Source: Octopus vulgaris
Taxonomy: Eukaryota
Direction: 5' to 3'
Length of the DNA: 64,000 nt
NCBI GenBank assembly: GCA_951406725.2
Contig: OX597843.1
Coordinates: forward strand, 5,952,001-6,016,000
Made by a program: the position numbers and the translations under genes. Every line of letters starts with the position of its first letter. Positions within the stretch are counted from its first letter, which is position 1. Of the stretch, positions 17,360 to 62,262 are shown one piece after another. The notes below the pieces were generated by a model. That model was not told the DNA's origin. It searched no databases and saw only the letters and a list, made by a program, of their open reading frames with translations.

Positions 17360-17633
17360 TATATATATCATAGTGCAAATGGAAAAATCCCAAGGCCACT
17401 CGTATACATTCGAAAAATGCTTGAAACAGGAAACAGGAAACTCTCTCTGTTTCTGGTTTTTTTTTAAATTGTTGCTCTCTCAAAACCAGTTTTGTCTTCT
17501 TGTAAACATCTGGTGATCAGAGGAAAAAGTGAACCAAGAGCGAATTCATCCTTTTCTGATTCTCACACTGACACACACACACGGACGTTAACGAGAAATC
17601 AACGTCTATCTAACAGATGGTAGTGAGATACCT

Positions 17634-18406
17634 CCTATTCCTTGTTTAGACTAGTGGTTCTCAACTGGGATCCATACGGCCCCTGAGAGTCCATATCAGA
17701 TTTTTGGGGGAGCCGCGTAGCAAAATCGTAAATTGGTGATCTACAATAGCATTTTAAGGCTTCCTGAAAATATCTGGCTTTAGATGACCCCTATTCCTTG
17801 TTTAGACTAGTGGTTCTCAACTGGGATCTATACGGCCCCTTGAGAGTCCATATCAGATTTTTTGGGGGGCCACGTGGCAAAATCGTAAATTGGTGATCTA
17901 CAATAGCATTTTAAGGCTTCCTGAAAATATCTGGCTTTAGATGACCCCTATTCCTTGTTTAGACTAGTGGTTCTCAACTGGGATCCATACGGCCCCTGAG
18001 AGTCCATATCAGATTTTTGGGGGCCACGTTGCAAAATCGTAAATTGGTGATCTACAATAGCATTTTAAGGCTTCCTGAAAATATCTGGCTTTAGATGACC
18101 CCTATTCCTTGTTTAGACTAGTGGTTCTCAACTGGGATCCATACGGCCCCTGAGAGTCCATATCAGATTTTTGGGGGGCCACGTTGCAAAATCGTAAATT
18201 GGTGATCTACAATAGCATTTTAAGGCTTCCTGAAAATATCTGGCTTTAGATGACCCCTATTCCTTGTTTAGACTAGTGGTTCTCAACTGGGATCCATACG
18301 GCCCCTGAGAGTCCATATCAGATTTTTGGGGGGCCACGTTGCAAAATCGTAAATTGGTGATCTACAATAGCATTTTAAGGCTTCCTGAAAATATCTGGCT
18401 TTAGAT
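17634..18406 (+). repeat. Tandem repeat, 5 x ~155 bp, from the left end of a hAT-type MITE
   Basis: Units start at 17634, 17790, 17947, 18101 and 18256; each has TAGTGGTTCTCAAC; matching right end TTGACAACCATTG near 18600-18612. Confidence 0.9.
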
Positions 18407-19073
18407 GTATATATTGGTATGTTTTGCAAGAAAGGGCTGGGTTTCTTTCTCTGACATTTTACATAGTTCAGCCTACACAAGGGACTGTGGGGAAAACAAA
18501 ATAAGAATTTTAAAAGGCGTTTATAGAAAACTTATGGAAGGCTTAGTGGGTGGGCACCAAAATAAAATAGTAGTCAAAAAGGTCCTTATGTGAAAACACT
18601 TGACAACCATTGATTTTGACTTCTCTTTCTCTAAGGAAACAAAACTCCCGAAATAACACCCGACCTTTTGAGAAACCAAAGAATACAGAAACGTTTTTTT
18701 CTGCACTGCCTGGCTTTGCGGTGTTGTGGGAGCTTTTAGCTTCAAATTCCAGCACGGCATTGCTCACTGCCGTTATCTTTAAGATCTAAACCAGTTGTTT
18801 CCAAACATGTTTTATGTATGGAGCCCTCTGTTTCCTATTATAAGTTACTGGACCCTAACGGACATTCAGTGTTTAAAAAATCCTATTTTTATTATTAAGT
18901 ATTATTGAGAATTGTATTTGAAAAATTGTTAAAATAATTTGTGCATTCTAGAAGTATAGCTAATTCATTGCGCATATATTTTAGCAAAATCTTAAATTGA
19001 CCCCTAAAAGGTCATGTGGACCCCCACGGGTCATGTGGGCCCTGGTGGACTCAAAATGTAAAGATTGACGAAA

Positions 19074-19455: not shown

Positions 19456-19881
19456 ATGTTCCTGTGGATTGCTGTGATCGCGTGCTGTTGTAACGTCCGG
19501 CGAGTGGAGTCCGTCACCATTGTAGGTCACTTGTTCATCGCTTCGTTCAAAGCTCCCCGGGCACGAAGTGCCGTGTTCGTCACGAACGACTCGCTCGTGG
19601 ACGCCAGCGAATCGAAACCGGTGTCCAACACCACGTGCAAGTCCACCGTGAAGCGATCGTACGATCCTTCGCGATACCCGAAAGTCATATACGACGTCCA
19701 GTGTGATTTTAATCACAGTTCGCAGACTCAGTGTGACCAAGCGACCAAAAACATCCACATGCTGTTCAAAAAGAACTGTGAGAAGAACATTTGCTCCTAC
19801 GATGTTGAGGTCAATTCCGTACAGACGGCTTGTGTTAAGAAACGGAGTCCAGACGAAATAGAGAAAGACGGCAAAATAGTT
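19456..19881 (+). CDS. Exon 2: signal peptide h/c-region, propeptide and IL-17-like domain 1
   Basis: Acceptor ttcttctcgattcag|ATG, donor GTT|GTAAGT (phase 0); MFLWIAVIACCC..VES; motif C-x8-DPSRYPKVIYDVQC..C..ML..C-x4-C.Y..ACV resembles the IL-17/trunk/PTTH D-x-x-R-Y-P signature. Confidence 0.85.
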
Positions 19882-19933
19882 GTAAGTACTCGGTTGTTGT
19901 TTTTTTGTTTATATATTACTTAATTCTTTTATT

Positions 19934-20344
19934 CTTTTATTTGTTTCACTCATTTGACTGCGGCCATGCTGGAGCACTGCCTTTTAGTCGAACAAACCGA
20001 CCCCCACCCCAGGACTTATTCTTCGTAAACCTAGTACATATTCCGTCGGTTTTTCTTTTTGCCGAACCGCTAGTTTACGGGGACGTAAACACACTAACAT
20101 CGGTTGTCAAGGAGGGACAAATACACACACACACAAACATACACGCGCACACACACATACACATACAAATATATATATAAATATATATATCGGACGGTCT
20201 TCTTTCAGTTTCCGTCTACCAAATCCACTCACAAGGTTTTGGTCAGCATGAGGCTACTGTAGAAGACACTTGCCCAAGGTGTCACGCTGTGGGATGAACC
20301 CAGAGCCATGTGGTTGGTAAGCAAGCTTCTTACCACACAACCAC
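19934..20344 (-). mobile_element. SINE family A (intron 2)
   Basis: Diverged full-length copy. Confidence 0.85.
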
Positions 20345-20583
20345 AAACATACAACGGGCTTCTTTCAGTTTCCGTCTACCAAATCCACTCACAAGGCTTT
20401 GGTCAACCTGACGCTTTTGTACATTTATATGTGTGGTATTGTGTGTGTATATATGTGTATCTGTGCAATCGTTTTAGCAGTTGTCGGTAATGTTTTAACC
20501 CCAGGCCAGTCTTGATCCAGCAGACCTATGATCAACGATGTTTCAGCTCTTATGAAACTTATTTAAACATCGTGTATCTACAT

Positions 20584-20772
20584 CGGTGCTTATCAACCTT
20601 TTTGCTGGGGCGGAACCCCAAGGAAACATTCCACTGGCTCGAGGAACCCCTGTGCAATAATTTAATAGTCTTATGCATGCATATCTGCACAGGAGAATTA
20701 AAAATTACAGCCAATTTTAGCAGTTGCGGAACCCCTGGACTGTTCTGGCGGAACCCTGGTTGAAAACCACTG
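20584..20772. mobile_element. hAT-type MITE
   Basis: TIRs CGGTGCTTATCAACC / GGTTGAAAACCACTG; degenerate 8-bp TSD; same family as 47473. Confidence 0.8.
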
Positions 20773-21099
20773 ATCTACGGTTACATTATCTAAGGCTCCC
20801 CTCGTTGTTATTGTAGTTAAGTTCTAAGGCCGTCCTGGTCTAGCGGACCCATGATCAAAGACGTTCCAGTGATGACCATCCTAACAAGAATTATCTTATC
20901 CAACCTGATCCTGTTTGTTGTTGTTGTTATCTCCATTATTGTTGTTATCTCCATTATCGTTGTTATCTTCATTATCATTATCGTTGTTGTTGTTGTTGTT
21001 GTCGTTTTCTTGGTGGTGGTGGTGGTGGTGGTAGTGTTTGAAATTGTTGTTTTTGTTGCAAGCAATTAATTTTCTTTTTCTTTTTCTTTCGATTTGCAG

Positions 21100-21402
21100 A
21101 AATTCTCAAGAGACGTTTTGTTATTCTTCAACAAGAAAGCAAAGGACGATGGTTTGGAACCAACCGGTGATGACGAAGCGAACAGGTTCGCCGAATGCCA
21201 GTGGGACTGGGTCCGACATGTCGACGACAACCGCTTTCCGCGGGTCTTCGAAAGGGCCGTCTGCAAAGACAACGAGCGCTGCAAACCAGTTTTCAAAGAG
21301 ATCGTCATGTTTGTTAAGCGCCCTGAACATGGATGTATCGGAGAATATTGTAACTATGAACCACATATCTATAATGAACCGGTGGCTTGCGTTTTGAAAT
21401 GA
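21100..21402 (+). CDS. Exon 3: IL-17-like domain 2, ending at TGA
   Basis: Long polypyrimidine tract plus ttgcag|AAA (phase 0, matches exon 2); CQW..DDNRFPRVFERAVC..CKPV..C-x4-C.Y..PVACV. Confidence 0.88.
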   Translation, partial: KFSRDVLLFFNKKAKDDGLEPTGDDEANRFAECQWDWVRHVDDNRFPRVFERAVCKDNERCKPVFKEIVMFVKRPEHGCIGEYCNYEPHIYNEPVACVLK

Positions 21403-21918
21403 AGTTTGGACGGAAGTGGAAAGGTTACTGGCCAGAAGCAGTCTCAGGAGAAACATGAAGCGGTTCAAAACCACAATTTCGACGTCGATTCTACTGCTTC
21501 AACGGCTGCCGCCTTCACAATCGGCGGCGCGGTTAACAATAACCGCAGTAACAATTCTACTTCCGGTCACTCGCTTCTTTCCGTTATATCAAATAGGAAT
21601 TTGCAGAACCACAGCACGACAGACAACTCCTCAACTACGACGACGAGGAGGCCGATAAAATGTCCCAGACGGAAGAGGAGGAGGAAGGCGAATAGGAGGA
21701 AATCGAAACAGGTGGAGCGGAGGAGGAGGAAAGAGAGAAGGCGGAGGTGTCAGCGAAAGTCGAAACGAACGTCGAAGCAGAAGAAGAGAAAGCATAGAAA
21801 GTGTACGAGAAAAAGGAGAAGAAAGAAAAAGAAGGCGAAAGAGGAAAAGGAGCAGGAAGGTGTGAAGAAGGAAGTGGCGGCAAAAGAGGGAGAAAATGTA
21901 GAGAAGACGACATCATGA
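21403..21918 (+). other. In-frame 171-codon extension after the TGA (readthrough, editing or nonsense-allele candidate)
   Basis: Same frame as exon 3 with no stop until 21916-21918; S/T-rich linker with five N-x-S/T sequons, then an R/K-rich block with three Cys. Confidence 0.6.
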
Positions 21919-22051
21919 GAATTCCTGCCCGACCCCCATCTCTTCCTTTCTGGAATTTAACTTATTATGTATGAGTGGCGTTGTATGAGTTTAGCTGTGC
22001 GTGTGTGTGTGTATCTGTGATTGTGTGTGTGTGTGTGTCTACGTGATTATA

Positions 22052-22122
<71 letters not shown>

Positions 22123-22155
22123 GTATGTATATATATATATATATGTATATATATG

Positions 22156-22204
<49 letters not shown>

Positions 22205-22296
22205 GTATATATATATATATGTGTGTATGTATATATATATATATGTATGTATATATCTATATCTATCTACAAGATATATATATATATACGTATATA

Positions 22297-22353
<57 letters not shown>

Positions 22354-22761
22354 TCTCAAAAACAAAATGACGAACATCATCATCATCATCATCACAACTG
22401 TGATCATAATCATCATCATCACCATCGACATACATTATAATTATTCTAATCAACATCATCATCATCATCATCATCATTACAGTGATTAATCACGTTGCCT
22501 TCATTGAAACCACACCAAAAAAACAAACTCAAAACATAAAGACAATACTGAGGTAGCTTAAAATGCTAGAAATAGCAGTCGAATCTCACTTTCCTTCACC
22601 CATCTCTCTCTCTCTCTCTCTCTTTCTCTCTGAAAAAACAATGATGGACATGTTGTTACGAGGTAGTTCTAAATATACAGAACAATTTTTTTTTTTTTTA
22701 ATTAAAGAAAAACTATAACAAATTTTAATAATGTGGGCTTAACGAGCCCTCGGCTGGACCG

Positions 22762-22792
<31 letters not shown>

Positions 22793-23884
22793 GCCAAGAG
22801 TCGTCAGCTTTCTCATGTTTTGAACCCCTGACCTCTTGGCAGAAACAAAAACTGCAGCAACAACAAGCAATGACTTTTAGACCAAAATTTGAGAAAAAAA
22901 AAACAAACAAAAAATAAAAGGAAATGACGAGATATGAAAAAAAAAAATCACAGAACATTTTTCTAAAAAGAACAATAATAAATTATATTTTCATAAAATT
23001 TAAAATATATATTTATAATTTTCTATATTTTTATCAATTTGGTTAGTTTTTTTGTCTTTTTCTCTTTTTGTTGTATTTTAAAACTTTTTTTTCGATTTAA
23101 AACTTTTTTAATCAAAGAATTCCCACCCAGCTCACCTTCTCCGCCAAAAAAAAAAACAAAAAAATCCAGAAAAAAACATTATGCTATAGCAAACCTTTAA
23201 TCCTGTGCTGTCTCTCCTATGGCTACTCGGCTCTTCTTTTTTTTTTTCTTTTTCTTTTATCACTCTCTTTTTGACCCACTGCACTTCAGCAGTACACTTT
23301 TGTGCAACACTTGAAAAAACAAATCTGTTCTCGCCTGGCTACTTTTATTTTTTTTTACATCTTCTTTTATTCAACACCCACAGACACTCAAACAGACATG
23401 CTTTCTATGTATGAGTACGTATGTAGGTGGGTATGTATATATATATATATATATATATATACAAATACATATGTATATACATATACATATATATATGTAT
23501 GTATATATATGTAGGTACACATATATATGCTCATACCTGGCTCACAATCATTACGATGTACCCGGTTGTCCGCAGATAGATCATATACCTCAGTGGGTAT
23601 GAGTATGGAATTCTACATACATACATGCATACATACATATATACCTATATATACACACATATATATATATATATTTCCTTTTATATATATGTGTGTGTGT
23701 GTGTGTGTATATACTCATGTATATATATATATACTTATGTATTTATATATATATATATATATATATATACTTATATATATTATGTTTAGGCACACACACA
23801 CACATATATATGTATACATACATGCATTCGTATAGATGTATTCATAATATATGCGACTGTATACAGACACACACACACATACAT

Positions 23885-23988
<104 letters not shown>

Positions 23989-24441
23989 GTATGCATTTAA
24001 AGGTGACAATTTTCCATCCATGACCACAAGTTGAATTATCAAATAAAAAACAACAAATTTGCTTCAAATTTGCAACTTTACTACGCTACGTGCATGGAGT
24101 TCTTTTTCTCCCCCCAATAGCCATGTCTGTGCATATCTCTGTCTGTCTTTCTCTCTCTCTCTACTATCTCTTCCCCAGCCTATTCCTCCATTTCTCTATA
24201 ATGCTTTAAATTCTTCATTTAAACAATGAATAAGCTTCTTTTTTCAATAAACAAAGTTCCATTGTTGGAATTCAGGTAGCCTGGGTCAACAAGATGTGCA
24301 TTAGATAACAATGTGTCGCGTAATTCCACTGTTCCACCAAATGTTTAAATTCGTAGAGTTCATCTCAGCACTCTTGTCTTTTACCTCCTGTTGAATGCAT
24401 GCATATATATATATATACACATATACATATAAACATATATA

Positions 24442-24517
<76 letters not shown>

Positions 24518-24969
24518 GTATATACATATATATTATATAAGTATATATAATTGGATATATATACATATTTATATATCATATATATATTATATATATATAT
24601 ACATAAAAACATATATATATATATGAATATATGTTTGTATATATACATATATAAATAAACATATATATTTATATTGTATATATACATATAAACATATATA
24701 TATATACATATTGTATATATACATATAAACATATATATATATGAATATATATACGTATATGTATATAAACATTATATATATATATATATATATACATATA
24801 TACATATATTTGTATATATATAAACATATGTATATAAATATATATATATGTGTGTGTGTGTGTGTGTATATATATATGCGTGTGTGTGCATGTATCTATG
24901 TATGGGCGTATGCGTGTATTTATAGCGATGATATGTATATCGGGTGTGTGCTGTTTCTAGATTATTAAG

Positions 24970-25110
24970 TATGTATATTTTTTACTACTATTTATAAAAA
25001 CGATGTATATTGTTATTTAAACATACCAAAATGTATTTAAGAAAGAAAGAAAAAAAAAACGATGTAAAAATCAAATAAAATATTTAATTTATCATATAAC
25101 CATGTCTCTT
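24970..25110 (+). terminator. Candidate 3' end of the gene: AU-rich elements and poly(A) signal
   Basis: Several TATTTA motifs, AATAAA at 25074-25079, T-rich tract downstream; other AATAAA (e.g. 22913) cannot be excluded. Confidence 0.45.
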
Positions 25111-25229
25111 TCCTTTTTCAACCGGAGTAGTCGTGTGTCTACTCTACCGCAAGACAATTATATATGTCCGTTTCAACTGACACAAATTGACATAAACTCA
25201 CTGTTATACTTCACTTCTAGCTGAAGTAA

Positions 25230-25589
25230 TTTGTGTATGGCAGGTTTGGCAACCTTCAAACTAACACTGCGGCACAAGTTGACCAAAATTGAGAGTATGA
25301 TAAAAGAAGGCTTGCTCTTCTTTCCGTAGAAGAAAAAAATTCAAATCGGACCATGTTAATACCAAGAATTATTTACATCAAAAAGGTGTTTTTTTTCTAT
25401 GAAAATCCCTATTTTTTTTTACGATTTTTGGACTGCTGTGTCGCCATTCTTCGGTGTATTTCAACCAGAAAAGTATTCACTTAAAGAGAATAACAAGCTA
25501 TATAATGCAAAATGTTTACTTTTCAAAAATTCCAATTCTCAAGGGTCAAAAAGAAAACAAAACGGAGCAACGCTGGGCTATACTGCTAG
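25230..25589 (+). mobile_element. Non-autonomous Helitron, subfamily 1 (diverged)
   Basis: Reverse complement of 12250-12615; ends ..TACTGCTAG|T. Confidence 0.75.
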
Positions 25590-25593
25590 TGTG

Positions 25594-25657
<64 letters not shown>

Positions 25658-25668
25658 CATATATATAT

Positions 25669-25990
25669 AAAGTTAATCCAAACAAGAAAGCACAAAAAAA
25701 CACAAACAACGCAAAGACGTGGAACAAATAAAGTATTATTGGACGCTCAGGAAAGGAGGAGGGTTTAACGTTTCGAGCGGAGCTCTTCGTCGGAAACATA
25801 GGAGAAGGGAAGACAGAGAAAAAAAATCGCCAACGGTATATATATAGGGAGAGTTTACGAAAAAAACAAAAGACGAAGACAGGTGGCGTACAAAACAAAC
25901 AGGTGTAATAGTATAACGCTCAGGAATAGAAAATGCCTTTTACGTTTCGAGCCTACGCTCTTCTACAGAAAGGGACACAGAAAAAACACA
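25669..25990 (-). mobile_element. Penelope-like pLTR fragment with two minimal hammerhead-like motifs
   Basis: GUUU-CCGACGA-A-GAGC(ucc)GCUC-GAAACGUU-AAAC at 25763-25797 and CUUU-CUGUAGA-A-GAGC(guag)GCUC-GAAACGUA-AAAG at 25937-25972. Confidence 0.65.
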
Positions 25991-26109
25991 AGTACTGGGT
26001 TCGACTCATTCGACTACTAAATTCTTCAAGGCGGTGCCGCAGCATGGCCGCTGTCTAACGACTGAAACAAGTGATTAGATAAAAAACGGAAACTGAAAGA
26101 AGCCCGTCG

Positions 26110-60479: not shown

Positions 60480-60866
60480 CTAGCAGTATCGCCCGGCGTT
60501 GCTCGGGTTTGTAAGGGAAATAACTATATAAGCATTTTTAGAGAGTTATAGCCAAAAAGTAGCAAAGAAATGCATTAAAAATGGAAATAAATTATGGTAA
60601 ATTTTTTTTTAAATCGTTGACTCATTGAAGACATTTTTAGAGAGTTACTTCCCTTAGATAATAACGAAAAAAATTGCATTAAGATGGAAAAAAATAATGG
60701 TAATTTTTTTTTAAATCGTAGACGCGCGCTAATACCCAGAAGGGCTCGATATGAATCACGACTATAAGATACCCGGTTTTGGTTAAACTGCACCGCAAAA
60801 TGTGGGAGTAGTTAGGAATCTAAATCGTAGGAGACAGACACACAACTTCACTTTTATATATAAAGA
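60480..60866 (-). mobile_element. Non-autonomous Helitron, subfamily 2
   Basis: Reverse complement of 47722-48115. Confidence 0.85.
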
Positions 60867-60871
60867 TATAT

Positions 60872-62262
60872 AGGAGTCAGGCAGTAGTGGTTAATGGAGC
60901 CACCTCTATGAACACGCAAATAGTGAGCGGTGTTCCACAGGGCACTGTCTTGGGACCACTGCTTTTTATAGTGGCCCTCTCAGATATGCCCTCAAATGCC
61001 CGGATAGCCACTCTGGCCAGCTATGCAGACGATACGAAAGTCTCGCAGAAAATACAGAACCCCTGCGATGTTGCACACCTGCAGCAGGAGTTGGACTCAA
61101 TCTACAGATGGGCTGAGGATAATAATATGCAGTTTAATGCTGAAAAATTCCAGGCCCTGCGCTACCAGCATCCAAAACTGAATATTAAACTTACAGGATA
61201 AACCGGCCCACAGGGAATTTCAATCCCAGAGCCTAAGTCTGTGAGGGACCTGGGTATCGACATGAGTGATGATACCTCTTTCCTGTTTAGGGCGGCGTGC
61301 TGGCAGAAACGTTAGCACGCCGGGCGAAATGCGTAGCTGTATTTCGTCTGCCGTTACCTTCTGAGTTCAAATTCCGCCGAGGTCGACTTTGCCTTTCATC
61401 CTTTCGGGGTCGATAAATTAAGTACCAGTTATGCACTGGGGTCGATGTAATCGACTTAATCCGTTTGTCTGTCCTTGTTTGTCTCCTCTATGTGTAGCCC
61501 CTTGTGGGTAATAAAGAAACGGATGATACCTCTTTCCAAGTGCACATCACCAGGATGGCGACAAAGTGCAGACGTCTGGCTGGGTGGATCCTAAGAACAT
61601 TCAGAACCAGAGATAAGGAAACCATGATGGTCCTCTGGCGGACATTCGTCCTCAGTCGCCTGGATTACTGCTCACAGCTATGGTCACCCACCAGTGTAAA
61701 ATTAACAGCGGACCTTGAAGCAATCCAGAGAAGATTCACAAAGAAGATCATCTCTTTGCAACAGCTCAGCTACTGGGAAAGGTTGAAACAGCTAAGACTC
61801 TACTCCCTGGAGAGAAGAAGGGAGAGGTATGCAGTAATATATGTCTGGAAGATCCTGGAAGGAATTGTGCCAAATTTTGGCATTGTAAGCTACACCAATG
61901 CTAGAACGGGACGACACTGCATAGTGCCAAAGATCCCAGCAATGCCATCACGCTTCAGGACCAGCTTCTGCAACAGCCTGGGTTTCAAGGGTCCACAGCT
62001 TTTTAATATTCTCACAAAGAGTCTGAGGAACTTGCACAAAGTAGATGTAGCGGTTTTTAAATCAAAGCTGGACATCTTCCTGTCAAGAGTCCCAGATGAA
62101 CCTACCTCACGACAAGAGGTGCAAATGAGAGTAGCTGTATCAAACTCCATTCTTCACCAAGTGCCACATATTAGACGAGGTTCTTCGCAATAACAGTGTA
62201 GCACAAAACTGCGGTGCATTAGCATGGCCGCAGCTCTGAGCTGAAACTAGAGATTAAAAAAA
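60872..62262 (+). mobile_element. 5'-truncated CR1/L2-group LINE (RT C-terminal half and 3' UTR)
   Basis: SGVPQGTVLGPLLF, YADDTK, VRDLGI, LDYCSQLWSP, YSLERRRERY; one stop (61199-61201); frame is restored after removing the SINE and one TSD. Confidence 0.92.
61284..61521 (+). mobile_element. SINE family B
   Basis: A box TGGCAGAAACGTT, B box GAGTTCAAATTCC; 16-bp TSD GATGATACCTCTTTCC at 61268-61283 and 61522-61537. Confidence 0.92.

Follow-up and report, generated by a model that had tools for sequence, protein, structure and literature searches.

A candidate stem-stimulated readthrough site at the UGA codon of a tandem IL-17-like gene in Octopus vulgaris

A gene of Octopus vulgaris for a protein with two IL-17-like domains ends in a UGA codon, after which the same frame stays open for 171 codons. 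The UGA is unedited in majority RNA contigs, most ortholog records end at the same point, and one distant ortholog, P0009, passes this point and continues into a tail with a polybasic block. The best explanation, and in our view a probable one, is conserved ribosomal readthrough of the UGA stimulated by a predicted RNA stem downstream. An amino acid would then be inserted at the UGA, and the protein, if secreted as its N-terminus suggests, would be made in both a short form and a form that may be tethered to the matrix. The window, that is the whole stretch of 64,000 nucleotides analysed, is G000:C30:5952001-6016000, in a genome of 2.8 Gb.

Structure of the gene and its relation to the IL-17 family

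The O. vulgaris locus was found to be a spliced, single-copy gene (Table 1). Its product of 242 aa with two IL-17-like domains is identical to the NCBI 'hypothetical protein' P0001 (Octopus vulgaris, 242 aa), and two RNA contigs from different studies, X5 record 24 and X16 record 17, cross the 19881/21100 junction without differences. A splice acceptor lies 5' of coding exon 1, and X5 record 24 has 26 further bases 5' of 19454; the exon upstream of the 19456 exon was not located. At 17626-18407 of the window, roughly 1 kb 5' of coding exon 1, a 155-bp unit was observed in five tandem copies that are 97% alike. The N-terminus, with a hydropathy of 2.78, is likely to be a signal peptide, and its hydrophobic nature suggests secretion of the protein. 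Searches of the O. vulgaris genome with the tail, with exon 1 and with DNA detected this locus alone, plus one weak match with stops, and the stretch after the stop is single-copy and not a repeat. All the databases examined annotate the short form only, and the NCBI gene models end at the first stop.

Table 1. Features of the gene, of the frame beyond its first stop and of the predicted RNA fold (window positions)
Feature	Position	Strand	Remarks
Coding exon 1	19456..19881	+	start ATG 19456; hydrophobic N-terminus, IL-17-like domain 1 (6 Cys), basic site at end
Phase-0 GT-AG intron	19882..21099	+	19881/21100 joined in X5 record 24 and X16 record 17
Last exon part 1, IL-17-like domain 2 (6 Cys)	21100..21399	+	IL17 20.4 bits; repeats domain 1
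First stop TGA, proposed readthrough codon	21400..21402	+	context A-TGA-AGT; ortholog records end here
8-nt spacer, stop to predicted basal stem	21403..21410	+	fold prediction
5' arm of predicted basal stem	21411..21429	+	11 bp, 2x2 loop, 6 bp; codons of tail residues 3-9
Enclosed 117-nt region, three inner hairpins	21430..21546	+	predicted; probably longer in P0009, from residue count
3' arm of predicted basal stem	21547..21565	+	encodes 6-residue motif exact in P0009
Stretch predicted to pair over the stop (21396-21408) on ribosome-free RNA	21568..21581	+	
Tail part A, S/T/N-rich linker, five sequons	21403..21651	+	coding-like three-base periodicity
Tail part B, polybasic block	21652..21840	+	42/63 R/K, three Cys, five R-x-K/R-R motifs
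Tail part C, E/K-rich, closed by the second stop (TGA 21916-21918)	21841..21918	+	end of coding-like, CpG-rich composition

The two domains resemble each other (E 4e-6), and their ends align as the earlier note stated. That alignment set the stop opposite an Arg of domain 1, and this part holds; judged from the sequence, the Arg more likely belongs to a basic, convertase-like stretch that separates the two domains (KKR; RKRR in Argonauta) and may serve as a convertase site. Each domain has six Cys, C-x-W is found in domain 2 only, and the closing CxC is absent. The Pfam IL17 (PF06083) scores, 18.8 bits for domain 1 and 20.4 bits for domain 2, are both below the cut-off of 24, and the gene was absent among the 69 matches of the IL17 family search in this genome. 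Precomputed PF06083 labels are attached to P0001, P0002, P0007 and P0008, the top two Atlas matches were IL17 clusters at 0.90, and comparison with PDB sequences gave 21 matches at E up to 1, every one of them IL-17A, the best ones at E 0.07-0.6 and the very best at 0.07. AlphaFold models were poor (pLDDT 38.3 and 39.6) and unusable for fold search. These comparisons suggest an IL-17-like protein, and not a tested member of the family.

Proteins of the IL-17 family carry 6-8 Cys per domain and a CPW-like motif, and the mussel IL-17s are single-domain proteins of 126-221 aa (PMC8353272). The octopus protein is like the invertebrate IL-17 family in its six Cys per domain, in C-x-W and D-x-x-R-x-P of domain 2 and in its hydrophobic N-terminus (PF06083; PMC8353272), but differs in having two divergent tandem domains below the Pfam cut-off without the closing CxC. 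It also lies apart from the large IL-17 clusters of chromosome 1. Of the 69 family matches in the genome, 67 were over the cut-off and most fell in clusters on C1, where two large tandem IL-17 clusters occupy G000:C1:14.7-15.0 Mb and 131.7-132.5 Mb. A single-domain IL-17-like gene, L002 (G000:C30:4043255-4043497), is located 1.9 Mb upstream on the same contig; over 53 residues it shares 40% identity with domain 2, it likewise lacks the closing CxC, and a fold signal was absent 3' of its TAG. Two distantly related records, P0016 and P0019, have two tandem IL-17-like repeats as well, and P0013, of 148 aa, matches domain 1 only (E 1.8e-14) and could be a further copy from an octopod or a first exon predicted by itself.

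The stop codon, the open frame and the predicted stem

The UGA is crossed without difference, with an unedited A, by X5 record 30 (21284-22000, depth 39.1) and X16 record 22 (21284-21463, depth 5.6), and the bin depth at the stop equals the depth of these records alone. Since splice joints are present in contigs of both, X5 and X16 contain mRNA. The stop is unedited and not spliced out in the majority contigs of two of the four runs, in which the majority base is shown and minor variants are hidden. The other two runs gave no cover at the stop: X1 covers neither exon and X11 nothing beyond 21392, and neither run served as evidence. The earlier note had proposed a check of RNA at 21400-21402 for A to G changes, and the contigs of the two studies read A.

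Another contig, X5 record 29 (21155-21306; 614 nt, depth 6.8), showed 16 differences; among its nine codons with listed changes six carry silent ones, and one change produces the residue found in Argonauta. Searches of the O. vulgaris genome for a second copy behind it found none, and this contig could come from a paralog missing from the assembly or from another octopod in the run. The end point of the X11 contig and those of both O. bimaculoides protein records were observed at 21381-21384, about 20-30 nt before the stem. Sequencing or assembly may have broken off close to the hairpin, or a minor splice donor may lie here.

Within the stop, the A at 21402 has a G on the 5' side and an A on the 3' side. 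The canonical leaky context is UGA-CUAG (PMC5868278), and neither UGA-C nor CUAG is present at the octopus stop, which reads TGA-AGT; readthrough sites often have such a context but do not require it. The remark in the earlier note that this context is non-canonical was correct, but the worry is softened by kelch, in which UGA-AUG, or UGA-AGC in mosquitoes, is combined with a stem.

Frame reading bore out the TGA at 21400-21402 and the 171 open codons after it, as well as the five N-glycosylation sequons, the R/K-rich stretch of about 65 aa with three Cys and the E/K-rich end that the earlier note had described. The computed lengths are 242 aa for the short form and 414 aa for the long form, in place of the approximately 250 and 422 aa given before. 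The N-x-S/T sequons are at tail positions 47, 50, 51, 69 and 75, those at 50 and 51 overlapping, and the Cys residues at tail positions 87, 116 and 134; the computed pI of the tail is 11.6 and its charge about +38.

The frame stayed open in 21/20,000 whole-tail dinucleotide shuffles, 49/20,000 two-part shuffles and 64/20,000 block shuffles (0.1-0.3%). Among the stop-to-stop frames of the window, 33 of 5,314 reach 171 codons, and 0-61 open codons follow the stop at the 31 IL-17-like loci examined in this genome. Such an open frame alone is unusual, yet it would arise by chance in dozens of genes per genome; the case rests on structure and ortholog evidence. When compared with shuffles conditioned on an open frame, the periodicity of part A was equalled in 1/600, its synonymous near-pairs in 0/500 and its low position-1/2 entropy in 1/500. 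The CpG-rich and T-poor composition extends to the second stop and ceases there. The codon model trained on paralogs gave the tail no support, with 297/600 shuffles as high for part A and 600/600 for the basic block; this model did not discriminate. The protein search with the tail only gave none among 705 candidates, and the Atlas gave no usable match for the tail. Hexamers resembling polyadenylation signals were seen first after the second stop at 22701 and 22913, and X5 record 30 extends beyond 22000.

Downstream of the stop a basal helix is predicted, in which 21411-21421 pairs with 21555-21565 and 21424-21429 with 21547-21552, at pair probabilities of 0.91-1.0 (0.71 for the first pair). 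The predicted basal stem persists if the stop and spacer are kept unpaired, as a ribosome would keep them. The fold of 21400-21560 has an energy of -54.5 kcal/mol (z -4.65; 0/200 shuffles), and among 21 segments of 175 nt over both exons the two starting at the stop gave z -6.5 and -6.6, followed by -3.2 for the next. None of 400 synonymous resamplings folded as well, and the best z for the post-stop regions of 31 paralogs was -3.6. Of the non-repeat tiles of the window 3/151 folded as strongly; these tiles were chosen from 365 for their lack of simple repeats and replaced an initial background inflated by (AT)n, with 6/128 tiles at or below -6. An inverted-repeat scan was dominated by (AT)n and uninformative, and Rfam at 21000-26000 returned only simple-repeat miRNA and snoRNA noise. 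On free RNA the predicted duplex covers the stop as well, with P 1.0 for the A21402-U21576 pair and for the stop G and A; because this duplex (21568-21581) extends over the stop, some room is left for editing. Elsewhere in the window, a nearly perfect palindrome with arms of about 47 bp (z -13.8) was noted at 52920-53020, probably a remnant of a mobile element or a duplication, and other strong hairpins near 30276 and 48826.

Orthologs and the competing explanations

Of the other ortholog records that reach the stop point, seven of eight end there, two from Argonauta and five from Logan, in three clusters; the shared position was read from protein records, and the identity of the codon from this genome only. 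The two Argonauta proteins (P0002/P0006), 51% identical, end at the stop column, and in the five Logan proteins (two clusters) the end lies three residues farther away from the last Cys. With these three additional residues in the Logan group, it is the distance from stop to tail that is kept, and not that from stop to last Cys. Outside this count are the O. bimaculoides records P0003 and P0005, which stop just short of the domain end, and P0004, an alternative model. On these sequence comparisons the stop is old, and a recent nonsense allele is largely ruled out.

The eighth record, P0009 (ENA contig, 341 kb), is about 55% identical to O. vulgaris domain 2 and 83% to the Logan group. It passes the stop column with W and continues into a tail of 151 residues. 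The ortholog comparison proposed in the earlier note came out in two ways, with a stop at this point in seven of the eight records and a W with a continuing tail in P0009. The first five tail residues of P0009 and O. vulgaris are identical at four positions (1/20,000 shuffles), an exact 6-residue motif is common to both tails (19/20,000 shuffles), and the basic block has 27 R/K per 40 residues in P0009 and 29 in O. vulgaris. In O. vulgaris each of the two common motifs is encoded by an arm of the predicted stem, the first by the 5' arm and the second by the 3' arm. When the P0009 residues were back-translated in the register taken from O. vulgaris, 20 of 21 Watson-Crick pairs were possible. 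This register was the best of 134 partners and the best of 9,453 seven-codon arm pairs, and 0/5,000 shuffles reached it; for arms of 8 or 9 codons the partner was still the best, with 4/9,180 and 10-11/8,911 pairs as good. Four codon pairs changed in P0009 stay pairable at 11 of 12 positions (P ~0.02), and the loop of P0009 is about 30 codons longer. This back-translation of one protein record points to conserved arms around a free loop.

Outside these motifs the two tails agree little. Their BLASTP comparison was not significant (E 0.099), MAFFT puts the P0009 motif opposite a different S/T block, and only one of the three tail Cys and two of the five sequons have counterparts in P0009. The sequons in common lie on the 3' stem arm only, and the term 'glycan linker' of the earlier note was thus overstated. 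Ortholog DNA was sought in two metagenome scans, which gave 172 and 76 pattern matches, none of them confirmed. At the W of P0009 the genome may have TGG, or else a TGA that the gene caller translated as W; the record looks like a gene called from genomic DNA as a single exon, and in calls of this sort a TGA is probably rendered as W at times. The source of P0009 is, as a guess from the sequence, a squid or cuttlefish, and a lineage of this kind split from the octopods about 250-300 million years ago. Taken together, the kept stop position, the P0009 tail and the predicted stem support the proposal, made in the earlier note, that the stop acts as a switch between two forms, one short and one with a basic tail.

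The main rival to readthrough is A-to-I editing, which we consider unlikely. ADAR would edit A21402 within a duplex and convert UGA to a Trp codon, so that the 414-aa form would be made from edited transcripts only. Editing is favoured by the predicted pairing of the stop G and A on free RNA (P 1.0), by the W of P0009 at the stop column and by the heavy recoding of coleoids, with reports of stop-loss editing (PMC8382921). The cases from cephalopods given there, however, change UAG to UGG. Favourable neighbours for ADAR are U or A on the 5' side and G on the 3' side, as in UAG, and for human ADARs, whose preference we assume for octopus, 5' G is the least and 3' A a less favoured neighbour (PMC11276115). 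Squid editing sites are described as showing neighbour preferences, in a statement that goes no further (PMC4384741). In addition, X5 record 30 and X16 record 22 read A, although contigs drop minor variants, and the arms that appear conserved in P0009 begin 8 nt past the stop and not over it. Of editing and readthrough, both named in the earlier note as ways to such a switch, editing is the less likely because of the 5' G neighbour and the two unedited RNA contigs.

It is improbable that the tail is a relic, left untranslated and slowly decaying in Octopus after an ancestor and the P0009 lineage had a sense codon at this place and the stops arose later. The recording of P0009 as one continuous protein and the low similarity outside the two motifs agree with such a history. 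It would need stops at one place in octopods and in two lineages whose domain 2 is 83% identical to that of P0009, and it leaves the complementarity of the conserved motifs as arms unexplained; moreover, the frame is still open and periodic. Ranking just after it, and improbable as well, is an ordinary stop followed by a 3' UTR, in which a conserved hairpin would serve stability or localisation and the purine-rich block would be in frame by chance. The NCBI models end at the stop, a chance of 0.1-0.6% would yield many such frames genome-wide, purine-rich simple repeats are common in the window and the codon model was negative, all of which speaks for this reading. Yet the distant lineage also has 151 open codons, a polybasic block in frame and a codon-to-codon register of the arms, and part A shows variation of the synonymous type.

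Two further explanations are very improbable. Insertion of selenocysteine at the UGA could draw on a loose SECIS-like pattern at 21455-21488, inside the hairpin, but such patterns match at chance level (6 found, 6.9 expected), SECIS is absent among 107 Rfam matches at E up to 5 (21000-26000), the GA quartet is not formed in the predicted fold, and the stop column is not Cys in domain 1 or in any ortholog. Equally improbable is a minor isoform in which the stop is spliced out or another last exon is used. The NCBI model P0004 does depart from the exon at 21381 into a Gly-rich end, but no exact copy of this end occurs in the window and its only likeness is to simple repeats, frame-keeping acceptors in the tail have weak pyrimidine tracts, the contigs are colinear across the stop, and a donor at 21382 would delete the last Cys strand. 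The recent CGA to TGA nonsense allele suggested in the earlier note, or an assembly error, can hardly be upheld, as Arg stands at the aligned position of domain 1 but TGA was found in two independent RNA data sets and seven of eight other ortholog records end at the stop point.

A possible switch and its known counterparts

For the readthrough that we prefer, ribosomes would pause at the UGA with the predicted stem at the mRNA entry site, and a fraction of them would insert an amino acid and add the 171-residue linker and polybasic tail. The residue inserted at a UGA in readthrough is probably Trp, Arg or Cys. The 242-residue short form would diffuse, and by analogy with VEGF-A the 414-residue form may stay close to the cell that secretes it, bound to heparan sulfate or to other polyanions, and a convertase cut at the R-x-K/R-R motifs of the tail could then free it. 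We tentatively propose, at slightly less than even confidence, that coleoids have kept this stem-driven switch, setting the ratio of diffusible to matrix-tethered tandem IL-17-like cytokine, since before the split of octopods from the P0009 lineage.

The mechanism itself is of a known kind. Readthrough stimulators of the same layout class are described for tobraviruses, for VEEV (8-9 nt spacer, 11-12 bp, 101 nt loop) and for kelch, with a spacer of 8 nt, 14 bp and a loop of 268 nt after UGA-AUG or, in mosquitoes, UGA-AGC (Firth et al., PMC3159437). The octopus site is like kelch of Drosophila and mosquito in its UGA-A, the 8-nt spacer, the stem closed by a distant arm round a variable loop and the long in-frame second ORF. 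In kelch, readthrough is reported to be stem-stimulated and within the CNS restricted to neurons (bioRxiv 10.1101/2020.06.22.165522); kelch is cytoplasmic and experimentally shown, whereas the octopus case is a prediction for a likely secreted, cytokine-like protein of a mollusc. The alphaviruses (VEEV, SINV) and tobraviruses share a spacer of 8-12 nt, a basal stem of 11-12 bp, a loop of 100-150 nt and arms more conserved than the loop (PMC3159437), but their sites are mostly UGA-C, unlike the UGA-A of this chromosomal gene. In dfr/vvl and headcase of Drosophila a stable stem likewise lies proximal to the stop, and readthrough of dfr depends on the distance of the stem (PMC13170385), but the stops are UAG/UAA and the hairpins shorter and local.

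VEGF-A toggles heparin binding by splicing. It is a cystine-knot growth factor with heparin-binding domains in an optional C-terminal basic tail, of which a readthrough form, VEGF-Ax, exists (PMC10328876). VEGF-Ax is thus a precedent for readthrough in a cystine-knot factor, but its tail is short, about 22 residues, whereas readthrough in the octopus gene would add a 171-residue tail with a basic block.

Abundant readthrough was placed in the Pancrustacea, that is insects and crustaceans, by Jungreis et al. (PMC5100048), in the main text of which 'mollus', 'octopus' and 'Lottia' are absent, and editing in cephalopods is named as its counterpart (PMC5868278; bioRxiv 10.1101/2020.06.22.165522). 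A readthrough gene of a cephalopod or other mollusc was not found in the literature as covered by title and start of abstract, with few subscription papers and no supplements. If the proposal is true, a mollusc would have a conserved gene with readthrough although its group is known for editing and not for readthrough, and readthrough would do here the job of splicing in VEGF-A and PDGF-A. A conserved case defined by a stem would be a ready reporter cassette and a search image for further cephalopod genes, and a likely surface-bound form of the cytokine would be missing from the databases. Editing and readthrough can be tested against each other at a single codon.

Other open frames of the window were seen at 36103-36396, 44477-45091 (-) and 60824-62190, and resemble what we take to be broken reverse-transcriptase ends of a non-LTR retrotransposon (LINE).
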